A stretch of 64,000 bases of DNA from Bacteroidales bacterium. Its GTDB lineage: Bacteria; Bacteroidota; Bacteroidia; Bacteroidales; VadinHA17. The stretch spans positions 833 to 64,832 of the forward strand of contig JASJGS010000044.1 in the NCBI GenBank assembly GCA_033791445.1, read 5' to 3'. This document shows, one piece after another, positions 14,909 to 55,359 of this stretch (its first letter is position 1; each line of letters opens with the position of its first letter). Made by a program: the position numbers and the translations under genes. The notes beneath the pieces were generated by a model. The model searched no databases and was not told the DNA's origin. It saw nothing but the letters and a program-made list of their open reading frames with translations.

Positions 14909-17900
14909 TCATTTTTTAACCTGAGCAGGATGTTTAACTATTCCTGTGTAGAAAGGAATACAGTCTGATTCTTTGTGACTTTTGACCAAATTAGTGATGG
15001 GAGCCAGCAACTTTGAAATTACATGTACATCGTCAAGCTTTGGATCTTTTATAGAACCTTTTATGTTTTGGCTAAGAATACTGCAGCCTTTTTGATTTAA
15101 CAGAGCAAGAGTGATATCAAGACTATCAAGCCCCAGGTTGATCCACCCTGATGCCGCAATTCGATTTTCGGGAGTCGTAAAAGCTATATCTTGCATTCTA
15201 AGGTTGCCCTTTTGTATATTCCAATCGGTGTATAATTCTAGAATATTCGATGATTCTTCAGGATTTGAAACCAAAAGACTGGTAAAGTCAAATCCTTTTG
15301 TAACAGCAAGTCCAACAGGGCCAGCAAAAATAACAGCCCCTATGTCTACAAGTGTGAAATGTTGGGTCCGTTCAAATTTTTTTGTAATTTCATCGATATC
15401 AATTCCCTCCAAATTTAGGTTTGAACCTTTTAATTGAGCTTCTCCATTTAAAGTTGGCGCAATACTTAACCAATCACTCCCTTTAAAATCAAGAGACAAG
15501 TCAAAATCCACTAATCCCTTTAGAGCTTGTTTTTCCTTGAAACTTTCAAGAAACTTCTCCACCTGAAACTGCTTTACAGTGTATTTTATGGAGTAGGACG
15601 GAGGTTCGTTGAAAGGACTCAGAACCAACTTACCTGTACCTTCCTTGCCAAACAAGCTAACTTTTTCAGGAGTAATGGTATACGTACCATCTATTGCTTC
15701 AATTCCAAAATATACACTGTCAGCCTTAAAATGAGATGTTTTTATTTTTCTGGCGGATAAATCAAATGAAGCAGTAAGCTTGGAAAGTGGGTTCGCATTG
15801 TGCTTATAATCTATATCACGGCCATAAAATTGAATTGAATCAATAATAATTGTATCTGAACTACTTGAATAGGATAATTTACTGGTTTTGAATTCAAGTC
15901 TATTTAAGATGGATTTAGTCTTTTTTATAAAGAACAACTTGCATGCCATTCCTCCGGTAAGCATAGCATTAAGTGCCTTTGGAATAGTATCTGTTTTATA
16001 ATAGTAAAACAATTTACCCGGATTTAATTCTTGAGCATGAAGTTGTATCTCCAGTTTTAAAGCTTTGTCAGGTGGGGAAAATATATCCAAAGATGTATTC
16101 AAATAACTACCGGCAACCTGGATAGCAAAGTCATTAAAATCAAGGTGTAAAAGGCTATCTATTTCTCCCAAAATAAAAATTCCCTGGTTTATTTTAATGG
16201 GAGGAAAAAGGTTTTCAATATCAGCATTCAAATGTTTAATGTTGAATTTAATCTCTGGGACTTTTTTAAAATTCTTAAGCTTATAAAGTGTGGTAGATAT
16301 ATCCACATCCATATTTATTTCATTTATTTTATGAGGAAAGCTTTCACCAATTTTTGGATCAAAGGATAGAAATTCTGGCAAGTCAAAGCTTGATGAGCTT
16401 ATAATAAGATCTGCAGAAATGTTTTTCCCCTCATCTTTTATAAATTGGGAAATATTAAATACGGACCCATCAATTTGAAGATCAGTATTACCTGTTTTAA
16501 TTTGTAAATTAAAAAGGTCCAGCGTATACAGGTTTCCTCTCAGGTTCCCATTTAAGAGGCTTACGTGATAATCAGTAATATTAAATGAAATACTATCCAA
16601 TAAAACTGAAATGTTATTCCTACTGTCTCGTATCCAACCCGAATCAGCTATAAAATGGCCGGTAAACTGATCTTTGATTTGAACAGTTCCAGACAAATCC
16701 GAAAGCTGATTGATTTTGAATATAGCATCAAAACCTTTTAAGTCTGTTTTTAGGTCTATAGTATAATCCAAATGTGGAGAATTGAAATCTTCGAGGTAGA
16801 ATAACCCATTAATATGTCCCTTGGGAAGTTGTGCTGAAATGGTATCGATTTTGAGATAGGCTTGGGATAAATCAGCCTTCTTCCCAGAATTAAAATGCCC
16901 GTTAATACTCAGGTTCTGAATGGTTTTATTTGATTCCGGGATTTTTACATTTAGATTATTTACGCCAAATTTACAATTGACTTCAGGAATCTCAGGATAC
17001 AAAAAGCCAATGATACTGGCAGTAAAATATACGTCTCCACTTTTGATGTTCTTGATTCCTGGCTTGGTTAAAAATAATTTCAGGAAGCTTATATCCTCAT
17101 CAGACCCATCTAGTTCAAGATCTAATTTTATTTTTTCATTTAATTGTGCAATACCCTTTAAGTTCATTTTTGCTTCTTGAACAATCATTTCACTCGGATC
17201 TATAGAAAGGGTTTTTCTCTCCCTGTCATAATGAATGGAGGACTTTAAACCCAGACTTATATTTTGAATATTTTTTTGATCAGATAGCTGCAAATCTGAA
17301 ATATCCATTTGCAAACGGCAGGTAGTTTTGATAATTTCAGGCATGTATTCAAAGGATGCTTTTAGCACGTCAATTTTGGCAACTGCACTTTTTCTAGAGA
17401 GCTTGCTATGGTAATTCAATGCAACATTTTTGAAATAAACCTGATTGATTGAAAGATCCATTTCAGACTTGGAGAATTTATTCGAATTATTGGATTCAGA
17501 AGCTTTTGGCTGTTTATGAATAATATGATCGGTTTCTGAAGGAGAAAATGCTTTAATGAAATTGTAGCTACTATCAACATCATTGATTAAATTAAACTCT
17601 CCACCTTCAATTGTAATCCTTGAAACATCAATGTGACCCTTGAGAAGTTCAAGAATGTTAATCCCTGCATGCAATGCCTCAATATTTGCAATAGGCTTTT
17701 CAAGGGAATCAATAAATGCCTTTTTTTCTAGTATTTTAATATTGGTAAGAGTGACTGAAACGCTTGGTAATTGTACGAATGGGGATAGGTGAATATCATT
17801 GAAAGTGATTACACTATTTGTTCGTTTACTTGTTTCTGCTATAATTTTCCTGCCAATATTATCTTTATTTATATAAAATAATACAAGAATGAATAATAGT

Positions 17901-17980
17901 AATCCTATTAAAACCAAGAATGTGGTTAAAGCAGCTTTAATAAGCCTTGAAAAAGATGGTTTTCTTTTCTTGTAGGACAT
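14909..17980 (-). CDS. AsmA-family-like large membrane-anchored protein
   Basis: 1023 aa. Single N-terminal TM (LTTFLVLIGLLLFILVLFYI) followed by a long repetitive beta-rich region. Architecture-based call. Confidence 0.45.
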   Translation of the reverse strand: MSYKKRKPSFSRLIKAALTTFLVLIGLLLFILVLFYINKDNIGRKIIAETSKRTNSVITFNDIHLSPFVQLPSVSVTLTNIKILEKKAFIDSLEKPIANIEALHAGINILELLKGHIDVSRITIEGGEFNLINDVDSSYNFIKAFSPSETDHIIHKQPKASESNNSNKFSKSEMDLSINQVYFKNVALNYHSKLSRKSAVAKIDVLKASFEYMPEIIKTTCRLQMDISDLQLSDQKNIQNISLGLKSSIHYDRERKTLSIDPSEMIVQEAKMNLKGIAQLNEKIKLDLELDGSDEDISFLKLFLTKPGIKNIKSGDVYFTASIIGFLYPEIPEVNCKFGVNNLNVKIPESNKTIQNLSINGHFNSGKKADLSQAYLKIDTISAQLPKGHINGLFYLEDFNSPHLDYTIDLKTDLKGFDAIFKINQLSDLSGTVQIKDQFTGHFIADSGWIRDSRNNISVLLDSISFNITDYHVSLLNGNLRGNLYTLDLFNLQIKTGNTDLQIDGSVFNISQFIKDEGKNISADLIISSSSFDLPEFLSFDPKIGESFPHKINEINMDVDISTTLYKLKNFKKVPEIKFNIKHLNADIENLFPPIKINQGIFILGEIDSLLHLDFNDFAIQVAGSYLNTSLDIFSPPDKALKLEIQLHAQELNPGKLFYYYKTDTIPKALNAMLTGGMACKLFFIKKTKSILNRLEFKTSKLSYSSSSDTIIIDSIQFYGRDIDYKHNANPLSKLTASFDLSARKIKTSHFKADSVYFGIEAIDGTYTITPEKVSLFGKEGTGKLVLSPFNEPPSYSIKYTVKQFQVEKFLESFKEKQALKGLVDFDLSLDFKGSDWLSIAPTLNGEAQLKGSNLNLEGIDIDEITKKFERTQHFTLVDIGAVIFAGPVGLAVTKGFDFTSLLVSNPEESSNILELYTDWNIQKGNLRMQDIAFTTPENRIAASGWINLGLDSLDITLALLNQKGCSILSQNIKGSIKDPKLDDVHVISKLLAPITNLVKSHKESDCIPFYTGIVKHPAQVKK

Positions 17981-18067
17981 ACTAATTTATAATGCCGAAT
18001 ATTTCTCCCCCTTATTCATGGTAAGCAAGTTTAAAGATACCAAAATCCGAAAATCTTTTCGCAAAGT

Positions 18068-18736
18068 TTACGGTTTCCCACCTTTTTTTAGGTTCAATAA
18101 TATGGAGAATGCCTTCTGAACATCCGCATCGCTCACCACAATGGTAAATTCATTGGTCGTAGATATAACTTCTAGGATATTTACTCCATCCCACGCCAGA
18201 TTTTTTAAAATAAAATAATAGAATCCTGATATTTCGGTATTTTCATCAGGAAGTCGCATGGTTATGGTGGAAAGATCTGTCTTTTTGCTTACCAATTGCT
18301 CTGTTTTAAAAAGTTCGTCCATTAAAGTTTCCTGGGATGAACTAATCACAATAGTGGTTTCATTGATACCCTGAGAAAAGGTATAGAAAATTCCCATCTG
18401 GTCTTCCAGTTGCTTCAACAGGATGGATTGCTTTTTTCGCAGGCCATCTGTATTTAGATAGGTGTAATCCATTAGATCAGATCGAACTGTAAAATCACCG
18501 AGGTTGGTGATAAAATCTTTCAGTCCTATATTTATTTTGTGATAATAATTCGGAGCCAGGCGATTAATAGCCATGATTATAGCTCCCTCATTTACCTCTT
18601 TTTTTAGTTTTCTTTCTACCTGAGGCCTGATCTTACGAGCCAGAGAGGATACATTAATGAGCTTGTCTGCCATGGCCTCTTCAAGAAATGGTGAATGAGC
18701 AATTATTTCCTTTACCGCTTCTGAAATAGTTATCAT
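18068..18736 (-). CDS. Hypothetical protein with C-terminal ACT-like domain
   Basis: 222 aa. The C-terminal segment GFYYFILKNLAWDGVNILEVISTTNEFTIVVSDADVQKAFSIL resembles the ACT fold of aspartokinase regulatory domains. Confidence 0.35.
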   Translation of the reverse strand: MITISEAVKEIIAHSPFLEEAMADKLINVSSLARKIRPQVERKLKKEVNEGAIIMAINRLAPNYYHKINIGLKDFITNLGDFTVRSDLMDYTYLNTDGLRKKQSILLKQLEDQMGIFYTFSQGINETTIVISSSQETLMDELFKTEQLVSKKTDLSTITMRLPDENTEISGFYYFILKNLAWDGVNILEVISTTNEFTIVVSDADVQKAFSILLNLKKGGKP

Positions 18737-18820
18737 AGTTAAATATTTAACACAATGTTAAAATAAATATAGGTAAATTTGAAATATTATTAACACTGTT
18801 TCTTAGATTGATTTATAAAT

Positions 18821-19288
18821 ATGGGAGTAGAGATAGAGAGGAAGTTTCTCATTATAGGCGATTATAAACACCTGGCAAAAGAAGTCGACGAGATTTCTCA
18901 GGGATACTTATCGTTGTCTAATGAGCAGGCTGTTCGAATTAGGGTTTCAGGGGAAAAGGGATACATTACTATCAAAGGAATGGGTAATAAGACTGGAGTA
19001 AGCAGAGAGGAGTGGGAGTATGAAATTCCTGTTTCCGATGCCCTGGAATTATTGAGAATGTGTAAAAATGGTATTATCCGAAAAAATAGATATTTGATAG
19101 ATTTTGAAGGAAAGACCTTTGAGGTAGATGAGTTCTCTGGCGACAATGAAGGCCTTGTGGTAGCTGAGCTTGAATTGAATTCTGAAAATGAGCCCTTTGA
19201 AAAACCTTCCTGGCTTGGTCGTGAAATAACCGGAGAAGATAAGTACTATAACCTTATGCTGGTAAAACATCCATTTAAGGATTGGTAG
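18821..19288 (+). CDS. CYTH-domain protein (triphosphate tunnel metalloenzyme / CyaB-ThTPase family)
   Basis: 155 aa. N-terminal EIERKFLI (ExExK signature). Size is typical of stand-alone CYTH proteins. Confidence 0.85.
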   Translation: MGVEIERKFLIIGDYKHLAKEVDEISQGYLSLSNEQAVRIRVSGEKGYITIKGMGNKTGVSREEWEYEIPVSDALELLRMCKNGIIRKNRYLIDFEGKTFEVDEFSGDNEGLVVAELELNSENEPFEKPSWLGREITGEDKYYNLMLVKHPFKDW

Positions 19289-19300
19289 GAGATTTTATTG

Positions 19301-19550
19301 GTCCTAAAGTCTAAGAGTCTCAAGGTTCCATAGTTGCAATTTCCCAAAATTCCCATATTCTAAATTTCCAAAGTTCCAATGTTCCATTTTTTCGGAGTTC
19401 CGATGGTTCAATGTTGAATAGTTTCACTTTTCAAGGCTCTAAAGCTCCATAGTTCTGATGTTTCAGTGTTTCAGTGTTTCAGTGTTTCAGTGTTTCAAAG
19501 TCCTAAAGTTACACCAATCCACCATTCCTATGTTCCATTATTTAGGTTCT
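19301..19550. repeat. Degenerate 8-bp-periodic tandem array (about 30 units) with a perfect core of 4 x TGTTTCAG
   Basis: Read directly. Successive units include gtcctaaa, gtctaaga, gtctcaag, gttccata, tttccaaa, gttccaat and gttccatt. Four exact TGTTTCAG copies lie at 19459-19490, with a fifth one-mismatch copy to 19498. Decayed units continue to about 19550. Confidence 0.8.
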
Positions 19551-19672
19551 TTTTTTTCATGGTTTTAGCTTGTTTAAAATTTAACAATATGTTAAGAATA
19601 TGTTTTAGTTTTTGTATTTTTTTTGGTACTTTATTTCAAGAGCTACATTTGCTGCCAAGAAATTTATAAAAA

Positions 19673-21004
19673 ATGAAAGTACAGAAGTTTGGTGGTACAT
19701 CACTTGGAACTCCGGAAAGTATGCTGCATATCTCCAATATTATTAATGACGGAGAACAAAAGATTGTGGTACTTTCTGCCATTGCCGGAACAACCAATAA
19801 ACTCATTTATATTATTGATCTTGTAAAGAAGTACCAAATTAAAGAAGCGCTGGTGAAGATACTAGAACTTAAATATGAATATGAAAAATATATTTCGGTA
19901 TTATTTACTAGCAAAGATCACCTTTCACAGTTAGAAGCCCTTATTGCAAAAAGTTTCGAAAAGTTATATGCTCTGAATGCCGAGGACTTAACAGATGAGT
20001 ATGAAAGAGAAATCCTCGCGCAGGGGGAATTGCTCTCATCTGAGATTTTTCATTTTTTATTAGAAACGCTGGGGCAGAATTCCAGGTTAATTTATGCATT
20101 AAATTTTATGCGTACAGATAAGGATTGTGAACCGGATATGTATTATATTAAAAGTAATATTAAGAAATGTATGCATAGTGCTCCGGAGGCGGAGGTATAT
20201 ATAACACAGGGCTATATCTGCAGAAATTATTTTGGTGAGATAGATAATCTTGGAAGAGATGGGAGTGACTATTCAGCAAGTTTAATAGGTTCTGTTTTAG
20301 ATGTTAATGAGATCCAAATCTGGACCGATGTTGATGGAGTGCATAATAATGATCCCAGAATGGTGTCTTCAACAATGCCTATTAAAGAACTATCCTACAG
20401 GGAGGCAGCTGAATTGTCTTATTTTGGTGCTGCTATCTTACATCCGAAATGTGTATTTCCTGCACAGGTAAAAAACATACCGCTCAAACTTAAAAACACC
20501 TTTAAATCCGATGCACCTGGAACATTAATATCCTCTACCTCAAGAAGAGATAAAGTTAAATCAGTGGCTGCAAAGGATGGGATTATAGCCATTCGGATAC
20601 GGTCAGCCAGAATGCTCATGGCCTATGGTTTCCTGAGAAAAGTTTTCCAGGTTTTTGAGGACCATGAAACCCCCATTGATATGATCTCAACTTCAGAGAT
20701 TAGTGTTTCCTTAACCATCGATAACCCGAAGAACCTTGACACCATCCTGGCAGATTTAATAAAGTTCGGGGAGGTTGAATACGATCTTGACCAGACTATT
20801 GTTTGTGTGGTGGGCGATTTTATGGCGGAGGAAACAGGGATGGCAAGAACTGTACTGGATGCATTTAAAGACATACCAGTCCGGATGATTTCATATGGCG
20901 GAAGTATGAATAATATATCATTATTGGTGAAATCAGCCGATAAAAAGAGATCACTTGAATCTCTGCATCAGAAATTTTTCAACAAACATTTCAGCTATGC
21001 TTAA
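19673..21004 (+). CDS. lysC: Aspartate kinase
   Basis: 443 aa. N-terminal MKVQKFGGTSLG (KFGGTS motif), amino-acid kinase core and two C-terminal ACT-like repeats. Confidence 0.9.
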   Translation: MKVQKFGGTSLGTPESMLHISNIINDGEQKIVVLSAIAGTTNKLIYIIDLVKKYQIKEALVKILELKYEYEKYISVLFTSKDHLSQLEALIAKSFEKLYALNAEDLTDEYEREILAQGELLSSEIFHFLLETLGQNSRLIYALNFMRTDKDCEPDMYYIKSNIKKCMHSAPEAEVYITQGYICRNYFGEIDNLGRDGSDYSASLIGSVLDVNEIQIWTDVDGVHNNDPRMVSSTMPIKELSYREAAELSYFGAAILHPKCVFPAQVKNIPLKLKNTFKSDAPGTLISSTSRRDKVKSVAAKDGIIAIRIRSARMLMAYGFLRKVFQVFEDHETPIDMISTSEISVSLTIDNPKNLDTILADLIKFGEVEYDLDQTIVCVVGDFMAEETGMARTVLDAFKDIPVRMISYGGSMNNISLLVKSADKKRSLESLHQKFFNKHFSYA

Positions 21005-22226
21005 AAAAATAGATATCAATGCATTTGAAGGAAAGGAAACGCCTTTTTATTATTATGATTTAGACTTGCTACAAACTACTGTTGATCGGTTAAAGAAGGA
21101 ATCTGAGAAGTACGATTATACAGTTCATTATGCACTGAAAGCCAATACAGATGATAGGGTCCTTCAGATAATTAGTGAAGCTGGTTTTGGTGCAGATTGT
21201 GTAAGTGGGAATGAGGTGAAGAAAGCACTGGAACATAATTTTTCGCCTGAAGATATATATTATGCAGGGGTGGGCAAAACCGATACCGAGATTCGAGCTG
21301 CCTTGATTGGAAATATAGGATGTTTTAACTGTGAATCCAAACAGGAGATTGGTGTAATTAGCCAGATTGCATCGAAGATGGGTGTAATCGCAAAAATTGC
21401 CTTGAGAATTAACCCTCATATAAATAGTAAATCCCATGCTTACATAACCACAGGAATAGAGGAAAATAAGTTTGGCATTCAATTGTGGGAGTTGGATGAA
21501 GTTTTATCTGCAGTCAGTACTCTTGAGAACGTGGAACTCATTGGCCTTCATTTTCATATTGGTTCACAAATAGCGGACCTGTCAGTCTTTAAAGAGCTTT
21601 GCCTAAAGGTAAATGAGGTAAATGAATATATTGGAGGCAAAGGTTTTAATCTTTCAATATTAAACCTGGGTGGTGGTTTGGGTATCGATTATGTAAATCC
21701 TGAATTAAATTCGATTCCTGATTTCGGGAAGTTTTTTGAAACTATCCATCAGACTTTAAAAGTGAAGCCCTTGCAGCATGTTCATTTCGAATTAGGCCGT
21801 TCGGTAGTTGCACATATGGGGACTTTAATTGCTAAGGTTTTGTTTATTAAAAATGGAAGAAGCAAGAGTTTTGCTGTAGTTGATGCAGGTATGACAGAAC
21901 TTATCCGACCTGCTTTGTATAACTCCGTTCACAAAATTGACAATTTGACGCAAAATGAGATAGGTGTGGCTGGAACCAAGGATGATAATTTATACGATAT
22001 TGTTGGGCCAGTTTGCGAAACCACTGATTTTCTTGGAAGAGATATTTCATTGCCTTCTACATTTCGTGGGGACTTGTTGGCTGTATGGAGTGTAGGTGCC
22101 TATGGTCAGTCCATGGCCTCAAATTATAATCTTCGAGAGAGGGCAGGGGTAGTATATTCTGATGAACTTTTGATAGATACGGGGCAGGAGGAGGTATCTA
22201 AGCAAAGGATCCAGGCAAATACTTAA
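20997..22226 (+). CDS. lysA: Diaminopimelate decarboxylase
   Basis: Group IV PLP decarboxylase blocks YALKAN, LGGGLGI and GPVCETTD. I prefer the ATG at 20997 (MLKKIDINAFEGKETPFYYYDL) over the track start at 20955. That gives an 8-nt ATGCTTAA overlap with the lysC stop. Confidence 0.9.
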   Translation: MLKKIDINAFEGKETPFYYYDLDLLQTTVDRLKKESEKYDYTVHYALKANTDDRVLQIISEAGFGADCVSGNEVKKALEHNFSPEDIYYAGVGKTDTEIRAALIGNIGCFNCESKQEIGVISQIASKMGVIAKIALRINPHINSKSHAYITTGIEENKFGIQLWELDEVLSAVSTLENVELIGLHFHIGSQIADLSVFKELCLKVNEVNEYIGGKGFNLSILNLGGGLGIDYVNPELNSIPDFGKFFETIHQTLKVKPLQHVHFELGRSVVAHMGTLIAKVLFIKNGRSKSFAVVDAGMTELIRPALYNSVHKIDNLTQNEIGVAGTKDDNLYDIVGPVCETTDFLGRDISLPSTFRGDLLAVWSVGAYGQSMASNYNLRERAGVVYSDELLIDTGQEEVSKQRIQANT

Positions 22227-22263
22227 TTGGATTTCTTAAAAATTATTGAGATCAATAATAAAC

Positions 22264-22305
22264 GTAAACAGGAAAGAATTCCAGGAGGATATCTTCTCTG
22301 TTTAC
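22264..22305. repeat. Inverted repeat between convergent genes (possible bidirectional terminator)
   Basis: GTAAACAG (22264-22271) and CTGTTTAC (22298-22305) flank a partly self-complementary segment. It lies between the lysA stop and the stop of the minus-strand ORF 22354-22851. No clear U-tract. Confidence 0.25.
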
Positions 22306-22353
22306 TACTCATAACCCCATTTATACAAAAATGGCGGTCCCCAATATTTTTAA

Positions 22354-22851
22354 TTAACTAATGTTGCAGGCAAATACCTTTTCCATATCTATTAAAAGCA
22401 TCGGATAATAAGCTGCAATTAAACCAAGGCACCCTTTCAGGCTTTTTTCATTCTTGTCTCTTGTTATAACCTTTTGATAAAAATAGGACGACTTATCAAG
22501 TATGTTTGCATCTGTCACAAAACCCTGGTTGTTTAGTCCTTTATTGTGTGTCAGAACACCAAAATATTCCTTATAACATATATATTGAACAGATAGTTTA
22601 TCAGTGAACACAATATACCTGCAGCAATCCTCTTCGGTTCGAACAGCCACAGAGACTGTCTTTGCAGAATTTTCATATGAGATGGTGTAGGTGTCCAACT
22701 TATATCCATCAAGAACTACCAGCTCAGATGACTTTTCAATGATAAAACCACCCAAGGCACAATTCGTAGTCCCTTTTAGAACAACTGTTTTTGCAGGGAA
22801 GGAAAAGGAGATCATTAGGATCAAAATAAAATAACTAATTAAATGTTTCAT
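22354..22851 (-). CDS. Hypothetical secreted Cys-containing protein
   Basis: The track ORF starts with TTG at 22884. The ATG at 22851 gives MKHLISYFILILMISFSFPA, a signal peptide. No family recognised. Confidence 0.4.
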   Translation of the reverse strand: MKHLISYFILILMISFSFPAKTVVLKGTTNCALGGFIIEKSSELVVLDGYKLDTYTISYENSAKTVSVAVRTEEDCCRYIVFTDKLSVQYICYKEYFGVLTHNKGLNNQGFVTDANILDKSSYFYQKVITRDKNEKSLKGCLGLIAAYYPMLLIDMEKVFACNIS

Positions 22852-54252: not shown

Positions 54253-55359
54253 ATGTTAAATAAAATATATATAAGTAAGCCTATCATAGCACTTTTGTTC
54301 TGGTTAGTTTTCCTTTTACCCTCCGGTGTATTAAATGCACAGGGTTTAGATGATGATAAAGACCTTTTGCTTGATACCACATCTGTAGTAAGTATTGATT
54401 CAGAAGTGGATTGGGACTTATTTGGAAATCAGGATCTACTTAGATTATCCCTTTCCTTCGATATGAAGGAGTATAAAAAATATGCTACTGAACCCAAATA
54501 CCAGGAAGCCGTTCTAACTATTCATGGGATGGATGGATCTATTGATAAAAAGGTAAGAATAAAACCCCGGGGAGAATTTCGGAGGAAGTATTGTTCATTT
54601 CCACCCTTGAAAGTAAATGTTAAGAAAACTGATTTTGATAATGACTATTTAGATAAACAAACGACATTTAAATTTGTAACACATTGTAAAAATTCAAGTC
54701 TTTTTGAATCATATTTATTGAAGGAGTTTCTTGTTTATAAGCTCTTTAATCAATTATCAGATATGAGTTTTAAAGTCCGGCTTATTCAAATGGAATATAT
54801 TGATACGGGTAAAAAGAAAAAGGTTTATTCGAAGTATGGTTTTATTATTGAACATGTAAATTCAGTCGCTTCAAGGAACAATGCTTTTGTTTTGAAGAAC
54901 GAGAAGCTCGGTCAGGCTATTATGGATAAAGATCATATGGCTTTGGTTGCATTATTTGAATATATGGTTGGCAATCCTGATTGGTCCATTACCGGCTTAC
55001 ACAATATGAAAGTCTTGAAAATAAATGATATAAACCTCCCTAATCCATTGCCTGTACCCTATGATTTTGACTATTCAGGGATTATTAATACGGAATATGC
55101 CATACCATCAGAAGATTTGGGGATTGAGTCAATAACAGAGAGATTGTATAGAGGAATCTGCCTTCCTGAAGAGGCTTTAAGAAATGGCAAAGAAGTCTTA
55201 CTTAAGAATAAAGATGAACTATTTAGAATTATTGAAGAATTTTCATATTTAAATAAGAGAGAACGCAAAGAGCTAAGCAGTTATCTGAATACTTCTTTTG
55301 ATATTATTGAATCTGAATCCTCTTTTAATCGTGAAATTATTAATAATTGTATAGATTGA
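54253..55359 (+). CDS. Secreted protein of unknown function, tandem paralog B (tentative CotH-like pattern)
   Basis: 368 aa. Signal peptide ends in ..LNAQ-G. Colinear with paralog A (VTHCKNS, KEFLVYKLFN, KVRLIQMEYIDTG, KYGFIIEH, GNPDWSITGLHNMKV, PVPYDFDYSG, TEYAIPSE). Confidence 0.6.
   Translation: MLNKIYISKPIIALLFWLVFLLPSGVLNAQGLDDDKDLLLDTTSVVSIDSEVDWDLFGNQDLLRLSLSFDMKEYKKYATEPKYQEAVLTIHGMDGSIDKKVRIKPRGEFRRKYCSFPPLKVNVKKTDFDNDYLDKQTTFKFVTHCKNSSLFESYLLKEFLVYKLFNQLSDMSFKVRLIQMEYIDTGKKKKVYSKYGFIIEHVNSVASRNNAFVLKNEKLGQAIMDKDHMALVALFEYMVGNPDWSITGLHNMKVLKINDINLPNPLPVPYDFDYSGIINTEYAIPSEDLGIESITERLYRGICLPEEALRNGKEVLLKNKDELFRIIEEFSYLNKRERKELSSYLNTSFDIIESESSFNREIINNCID

Follow-up and report, generated by a model that had tools for sequence, protein, structure and literature searches.

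A degenerate octamer array upstream of lysC is an ordinary lineage-specific short tandem repeat of Bacteroidales intergenic gaps

Repeat tracts that act through phase variation of promoters are known from host-adapted pathogens, where they are found at surface-antigen genes. Several sets of short-unit tandem arrays have been described in bacteria, including the TAACTGA heptamer arrays of a few Bacteroidetes, some long examples of which are missing from the closest relatives (MacGregor 2015, PMC4679880), the long simple-sequence repeats of Mrazek et al. (2007), here taken as they are summarised in PMC4679880, and the G-rich heptamers of Rehm et al. (2015, PMC4692102). In the ORF-bearing 23S rRNA intervening sequence (IVS) of Coxiella, heptamers precede the S23p ORF, and their copy number differs between strains (Warrier et al. 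2016, PMC4990558). Here we describe an octamer array in a 64,000-nt window, by which we mean the whole stretch of DNA that was analysed, from a 4.1-Mb Bacteroidales MAG (36.9% G+C, 270 contigs, 87% complete; hereafter G000). The array occupies the spacer between a CYTH-domain gene and lysC, and the features of the locus are collected in Table 1.

Table 1. Features of the CYTH-lysC-lysA locus, in window coordinates
Feature	Position	Strand	Evidence and remarks
Second palindrome copy, TTAACA-CAA-TGTTAA	18747..18761	+	Divergent spacer upstream of CYTH
CYTH-domain gene	18821..19288	+	Pfam PF01928, E 1.4e-17; stop codon 12 nt before array
Octamer tandem array	19301..19547	+	31 units, consensus G-T-T-Y-C-A-N-W; lag-8 identity, unit table, per-position information, TRF
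Single 7-nt unit, TTTCAAG	19429..19435	+	Sole register shift of array; unit parse
Perfect core, (TGTTTCAG)x4.9	19459..19497	+	TRF: 100% matches, score 78
Conserved block, presumed lysC operator	19571..19612	+	Alignment with G002 and G003; three species of the genus
Presumed Bacteroidetes-type lysC promoter	19622..19651	+	-33 TTTG 19622-19625, -7 TACATTTG 19644-19651
lysC, aspartokinase	19673..21004	+	Pfam AA_kinase and ACT domains
lysA, diaminopimelate decarboxylase	20955..22226	+	Pfam Orn_Arg_deC_N and Orn_DAP_Arg_deC

The array consists of 30 units of 8 nt and one of 7 nt, arranged head to tail with no spacers between them. Its self-identity in 19301-19550 is 0.60, 0.56, 0.53, and 0.50 at lags of 8, 16, 24, and 32 nt and just 0.10-0.20 at the out-of-phase lags (3-5, 11-13, 19-21, and 27-29 nt), and Tandem Repeats Finder (TRF) retrieved, in addition to the perfect core, degenerate 8-, 16-, and 24-nt periods at 19321-19386. 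The array is a mosaic of GTCYWAAR-like units (19301-19324, 19436, and 19500) and GTTYCA units. Unit positions 1 to 6 carry 0.7-1.1 bits each and positions 7 and 8 carry 0.17-0.29 bits; G1, T2, T3, C5, and A6 are kept, and the variation falls mostly at positions 7 and 8, along with a C/T alternation at position 4. The array sits between the CYTH stop codon and the lysC promoter and is noncoding; the sole ORF that spans it, 19466-19669, is of low complexity and overruns the conserved promoter. An initial annotation of the window had already recognized about 30 consecutive 8-nt units upstream of lysC, a perfect core, the CYTH, lysC, and lysA genes around them, and the noncoding nature of the array, all of which our unit parse, the TRF run, the Pfam domains, and the inspection of the ORF bear out. 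It had likewise judged the array not to be CRISPR-like, and a CRISPR array, with 23- to 50-nt repeats and unique spacers, is indeed ruled out because the 8-nt units abut one another. Predicted folding does not go beyond chance (z about -1.1), be the array taken as RNA or as DNA, and there is no inverted partner array within 16500-22500. The listed TTG start of lysA is probably too early, as the lysC and lysA ORFs of the congener G002 overlap by just 8 nt.

In its general properties, this array resembles the LSSR, STRR, and TAACTGA arrays, which have units of 5-11 nt placed head to tail, are intergenic, occur at several loci per genome, are taxonomically patchy with representatives in Bacteroidetes, are absent in their long forms from the closest syntenic relatives, and have no function assigned to them. 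It shows each of the features by which the LSSR and STRR classes are recognized, namely, spacerless 5- to 11-nt units, noncoding placement, several arrays per genome, and a patchy distribution among relatives. It differs from them in being an octamer, GTTYCANW, rather than a heptamer and in having 31 very degenerate units with a kept 6-nt core. We conclude that the lysC array is an ordinary lineage-specific short tandem repeat of Bacteroidales intergenic gaps; it need no longer be counted among the candidate regulators of lysC and, taken alone, matters little. Because this copy is unusually long and degenerate, the unit positions that are kept can be read from it, namely, six of the eight, with their spacing fixed.

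The CYTH-lysC-lysA gene order is kept in the congeners G002 (lysC 81% identical) and G003 (74%), in which the CYTH-lysC spacer measures 147 and 135 bp, respectively, versus 384 bp here, and the difference of about 250 bases is the array. The 8-nt periodicity is absent from both short spacers, in which proto-units are not significant either (p 0.09 and 0.42), so that expansion in place and insertion are indistinguishable at this locus. The site of the array is cleanly defined by these two congeners.

The reading that we favor, and that we hold to be reasonably probable, is that of a gene-less, one-directional short-unit array that was gained or expanded in this lineage, was resized by slippage, and lies outside lysC control. 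It would be one member of the 7- to 11-nt intergenic tandem arrays of this Bacteroidales family, its gain or expansion would postdate the split of this species' lineage from the two sampled congeners, and it would take up the space that separates the CYTH stop codon from the conserved operator/promoter of lysC. Its length would change in whole units, presumably via slipped-strand mispairing or unequal exchange. The perfect core of 4.9 copies is best read as a recent slippage event and would mark the latest round of slippage or exchange. The effect of the array on lysC is most likely small, and it may well have no regulatory role.

A neutral minisatellite, sprung from a chance direct repeat by replication slippage in place, now decaying without constraint and unrelated to the arrays of the four-helix-bundle genes discussed below, would also have a perfect core with imperfect flanks. 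We nevertheless consider such an origin unlikely. The initial annotation had described progressively decayed units around the core and, with these, a repeatedly expanding and decaying minisatellite; its core is as recent slippage would leave it, but the gradient is not seen, as identity to the core unit does not correlate with distance from the core (Spearman rho 0.02, p 0.90) and interunit identity is nearly flat, at 0.61 for neighbors and about 0.55 at separations of 2-24 units. The lack of secondary structure and the absence of the array from the congeners agree with a neutral repeat, as does the observation that most like arrays have no PF05635 gene nearby. Against it, a single register-breaking indel is found among 31 units that differ at about 40% of positions, and variation is confined mainly to 2-3 of the 8 positions, with mismatches spread unevenly over the unit (chi-square p 0.017 with the identical core units collapsed, a generous value that overstates the evidence for constraint because the units of an array share ancestry). 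Moreover, this 6+2 word also recurs in further genera and phyla. Taken together, the flat identity, the uneven mismatches, and the single indel agree better with a 6-nt word that is kept at a fixed spacing than with free decay, which suggests that the word GTTYCA is held under constraint at a strict 8-nt spacing with two free positions.

The lysC array is not specific to lysC, as like arrays adjoin unrelated genes in G000 and its relatives. G000 has about 15 further noncoding arrays of 7-11 nt (periods 7, 8, 10, or 11), several of them at contig ends, and because the assembly is a fragmented MAG, both such arrays and its PF05635 genes are probably undercounted. They include 7-nt arrays on contigs C203, C221, C224, C228, and C239 and smaller 8-, 10-, and 11-nt arrays on C12, C56, and C14, and the neighbors of the arrays are unrelated genes coding for cupin, TPR, CBM9-like, and other proteins. 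A whole-genome scan retrieved just one other region of comparably strong 8-nt periodicity, C243:55090-55300; with a more sensitive detector, 13 arrays of at least 60 bp with a period of 7 or 8 were found versus 2 in the shuffled genome. A heptamer family is common to G000 and G002 at many loci. For the heptamer array on C228, the orthologous site is occupied in G002 by units that have diverged, which indicates that some arrays persist across species while their words turn over. Directly before this array, the 3' end of a small cupin gene (L184:1785-1873 versus L187; contig C228 of G000 versus C11 of G002) is identical between the two genomes over about 89 nt, in surroundings that are about 74% identical.

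Within G000, the GTTYCA-N2 word forms an array only at lysC. Arrays of this word were found in 8 of 61 genomes of the family and in 4 of 20 genera, with none in the three congeners. Twelve arrays were inspected in five other genomes of the family; none of them has an adjacent PF05635 gene, and all ten that were tabulated lie in short intergenic spacers in either orientation to their neighbors. A scan with one genome per species detected at least 120 GTTYCA-N2 loci, and those listed come from Bacteroidota, Acidobacteriota, Leptospiraceae, Chloroflexota, Planctomycetota, cyanobacteria, and others. Among the listed matches, a PF05635 gene lies within the 8 kb fetched at 3 of 120 loci and is adjacent in only one.

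In the genome G050, where 353 windows match GTTYCA-N2, a hairpin module is present in about 47 copies, composed of a forward array (GTTCCANN)n, a 30-nt loop AGGTAGTTCTTCAACT, and a reverse array (NNTGGAAC)m. One set of these modules flanks a PF05635 gene (locus L049), which has a forward array upstream of it and is bordered on either side by repeated forward-loop-reverse modules; the remaining modules are gene-less and lie beside unrelated genes. The loop sequence occurs at the background level in G000, G002, and G003. The modules lie in C4:1,043,000-1,128,000 and at other sites (loci L049 and L055-L059), about 30 of them are packed in a single region of about 85 kb, and further C-rich 8-nt arrays of G050 are joined to hairpin modules.

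The PF05635/S23p cassettes and the 23S rRNA IVS share with the lysC array the length class of the unit, and the arms of the L049 gene of G050 are built of the word GTTCCA-N2; furthermore, another 8-nt array of G000 flanks a PF05635 gene. A profile search of G000 retrieved PF05635 (23S_rRNA_IVP/TIGR02436 four-helix-bundle) genes on C243, C97, and C158 only, and each of the three either is flanked by arrays or adjoins the end of its contig. The genes are multicopy across 40 genomes of the family, and at 26 of 30 family loci, arrays of 7-, 8-, or 9-nt units lie no more than 400 bp away, in many cases to either side of the gene; as a control, lysC loci yielded 4 arrays in 84 kb. At every locus read, the two flanks of the gene are inverted copies of each other. 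Nearly all PF05635 genes thus have arrays, whereas most arrays have no gene, so the association is one-sided, and this asymmetry within the family constrains models that relate the repeats to the four-helix-bundle genes. The lysC array is not itself a PF05635 cassette, as it has no gene between arrays, no inverted partner, and no hairpin potential (fold z -1.1), and our own HMM found no PF05635 gene in L001, which covers the locus; it differs from the 23S rRNA IVS in lying in a protein-gene spacer rather than in rRNA. A relationship to the cassettes is plausible but loose. It would rest on a 14-nt stretch common to the lysC array and the C243 arms, which ranks near the 99th percentile of random windows, and on the recurrence of its word in the L049 arms; the lysC array would be at most an orphan relative of cassette arms.

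On C243 (54517-55290; L180), the PF05635 gene at 54685-55044 has 8-nt arrays on both sides, with units, CTTNGACT, that correspond in reverse complement to those with which the lysC array begins. On C97 (3600-4405; L181), the intact four-helix-bundle gene is preceded by two extra copies of its first 45 nt or so, both of which have an 8-nt array after them, and a 16/17-nt array runs from the intact gene to the contig end.

The array could also be a site of action in trans, at which an Avd-like pentamer encoded elsewhere would recognize GTTYCA at 8-nt spacing and coat the array in the way that it would coat the arms around its own gene. GTTYCA arms are absent from all three PF05635 genes assembled in G000, and the repeat period does not significantly track the PF05635 protein tree (10 changes versus 12.2 expected, p 0.09), both of which tell against this proposal; we hold it to be improbable, in spite of several observations that point toward it. 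Thus, PF05635 genes are almost always flanked by arrays; the C243 protein is sister to L046, from another genus, and both have arms of the same word; in a clade comprising L049, L030, L031, and L034, the arms are built on a GTTYC core spaced at 8 or 9 nt; and the core word and its spacing are kept in the lysC array. GTTYCA at 8-nt spacing would then be a recognition code for the pentamer, and gene-less arrays would be its dispersed landing pads, in this case beside the lysC operator, an extension to which the sequences lend little likelihood. If true, the long-unexplained heptamer and octamer repeats of bacteria would gain a protein partner.

Our preferred reading, of a gene-less array gained or expanded in this lineage and resized by slippage, places the array outside lysC control. 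The conserved block upstream of lysC holds the palindrome TTAACA-ATA-TGTTAA (19581-19595) and TGTT words at 11-nt spacing. In the general form TTAACA-N3-TGTTAA, this palindrome lies 91-102 nt upstream of the lysC ATG in six family genomes from at least four genera, and it has 2 copies in the 64-kb window, versus 0 expected, and 4 in the whole assembly. The 15-bp palindrome is probably the operator for a regulator of the lysC/CYTH locus. Farther downstream, TAnnTTTG, with TTTG before it (Table 1), is common to the aligned sequences of G000, G002, and G003, and the pair matches what we take to be the Bacteroides -33/-7 promoter consensus. A sigma-70 promoter and terminator scan, of a kind that does not cover Bacteroidetes promoters, found nothing, and no credible Rfam match to a riboswitch or other RNA family was obtained in 18500-20500 at E values up to 10.

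The end of the array is about 20 nt from the conserved block, 30 nt from the palindrome, and about 75 nt from the -33 box, and the operator-to-ATG spacing here is that of relatives without the array. As judged from the aligned sequences, the array is outside the conserved lysC control region. The initial annotation had placed it in the lysC promoter/leader region and had supposed that its copy number could change promoter spacing. Neither proposal holds, as the operator-like block and the -33 and -7 boxes are all downstream of the array and the distances to the ATG are the same in relatives that lack it, so that the number of units cannot alter promoter spacing. Like phase-variation repeats, the array is short, tandem, and close to the start of a gene, and it includes a perfect stretch in which slippage could occur; it differs from them in lying neither between the promoter elements nor in the leader, in being mostly imperfect, and in adjoining a housekeeping biosynthetic operon. 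The distance between the two palindromes is widened by the array, from about 600 bp in G002 to 834 bp here. A contingency tract or binding-site array that would tune lysC-lysA or CYTH via copy number is very improbable: its location ahead of lysC in the intergenic spacer, a perfect tract capable of slippage, and the widened interpalindrome distance are in its favor, but the array is upstream of the operator-like block and the promoter boxes with ATG spacing unchanged, the congeners run the same locus without it, like arrays adjoin functionally unrelated genes in both orientations, and no riboswitch or other known RNA element was found with Rfam.

One metagenome scan retrieved contig RCNF010087481.1 (L051), on which lysC is 98% identical to that of the window and the 81 upstream bases are unrelated. 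These bases (positions 1-81) resemble a signal peptide ORF, and the contig ends 81 nt upstream of the lysC ATG; it is either from a rearranged strain or chimeric. A second match of the scan starts inside lysC, and no contig crosses the spacer. In the congener G001 (C646; L183:188-238), a sequence resembling part of the conserved block, ATATGTTAA-GAATATGTTTT, precedes an unrelated gene coding for a protein of 208 aa. This BLAST match was rejected as a lysC locus and is a similar promoter-region motif before another gene, on which basis part of the lysC upstream block may be a commoner promoter-region motif.
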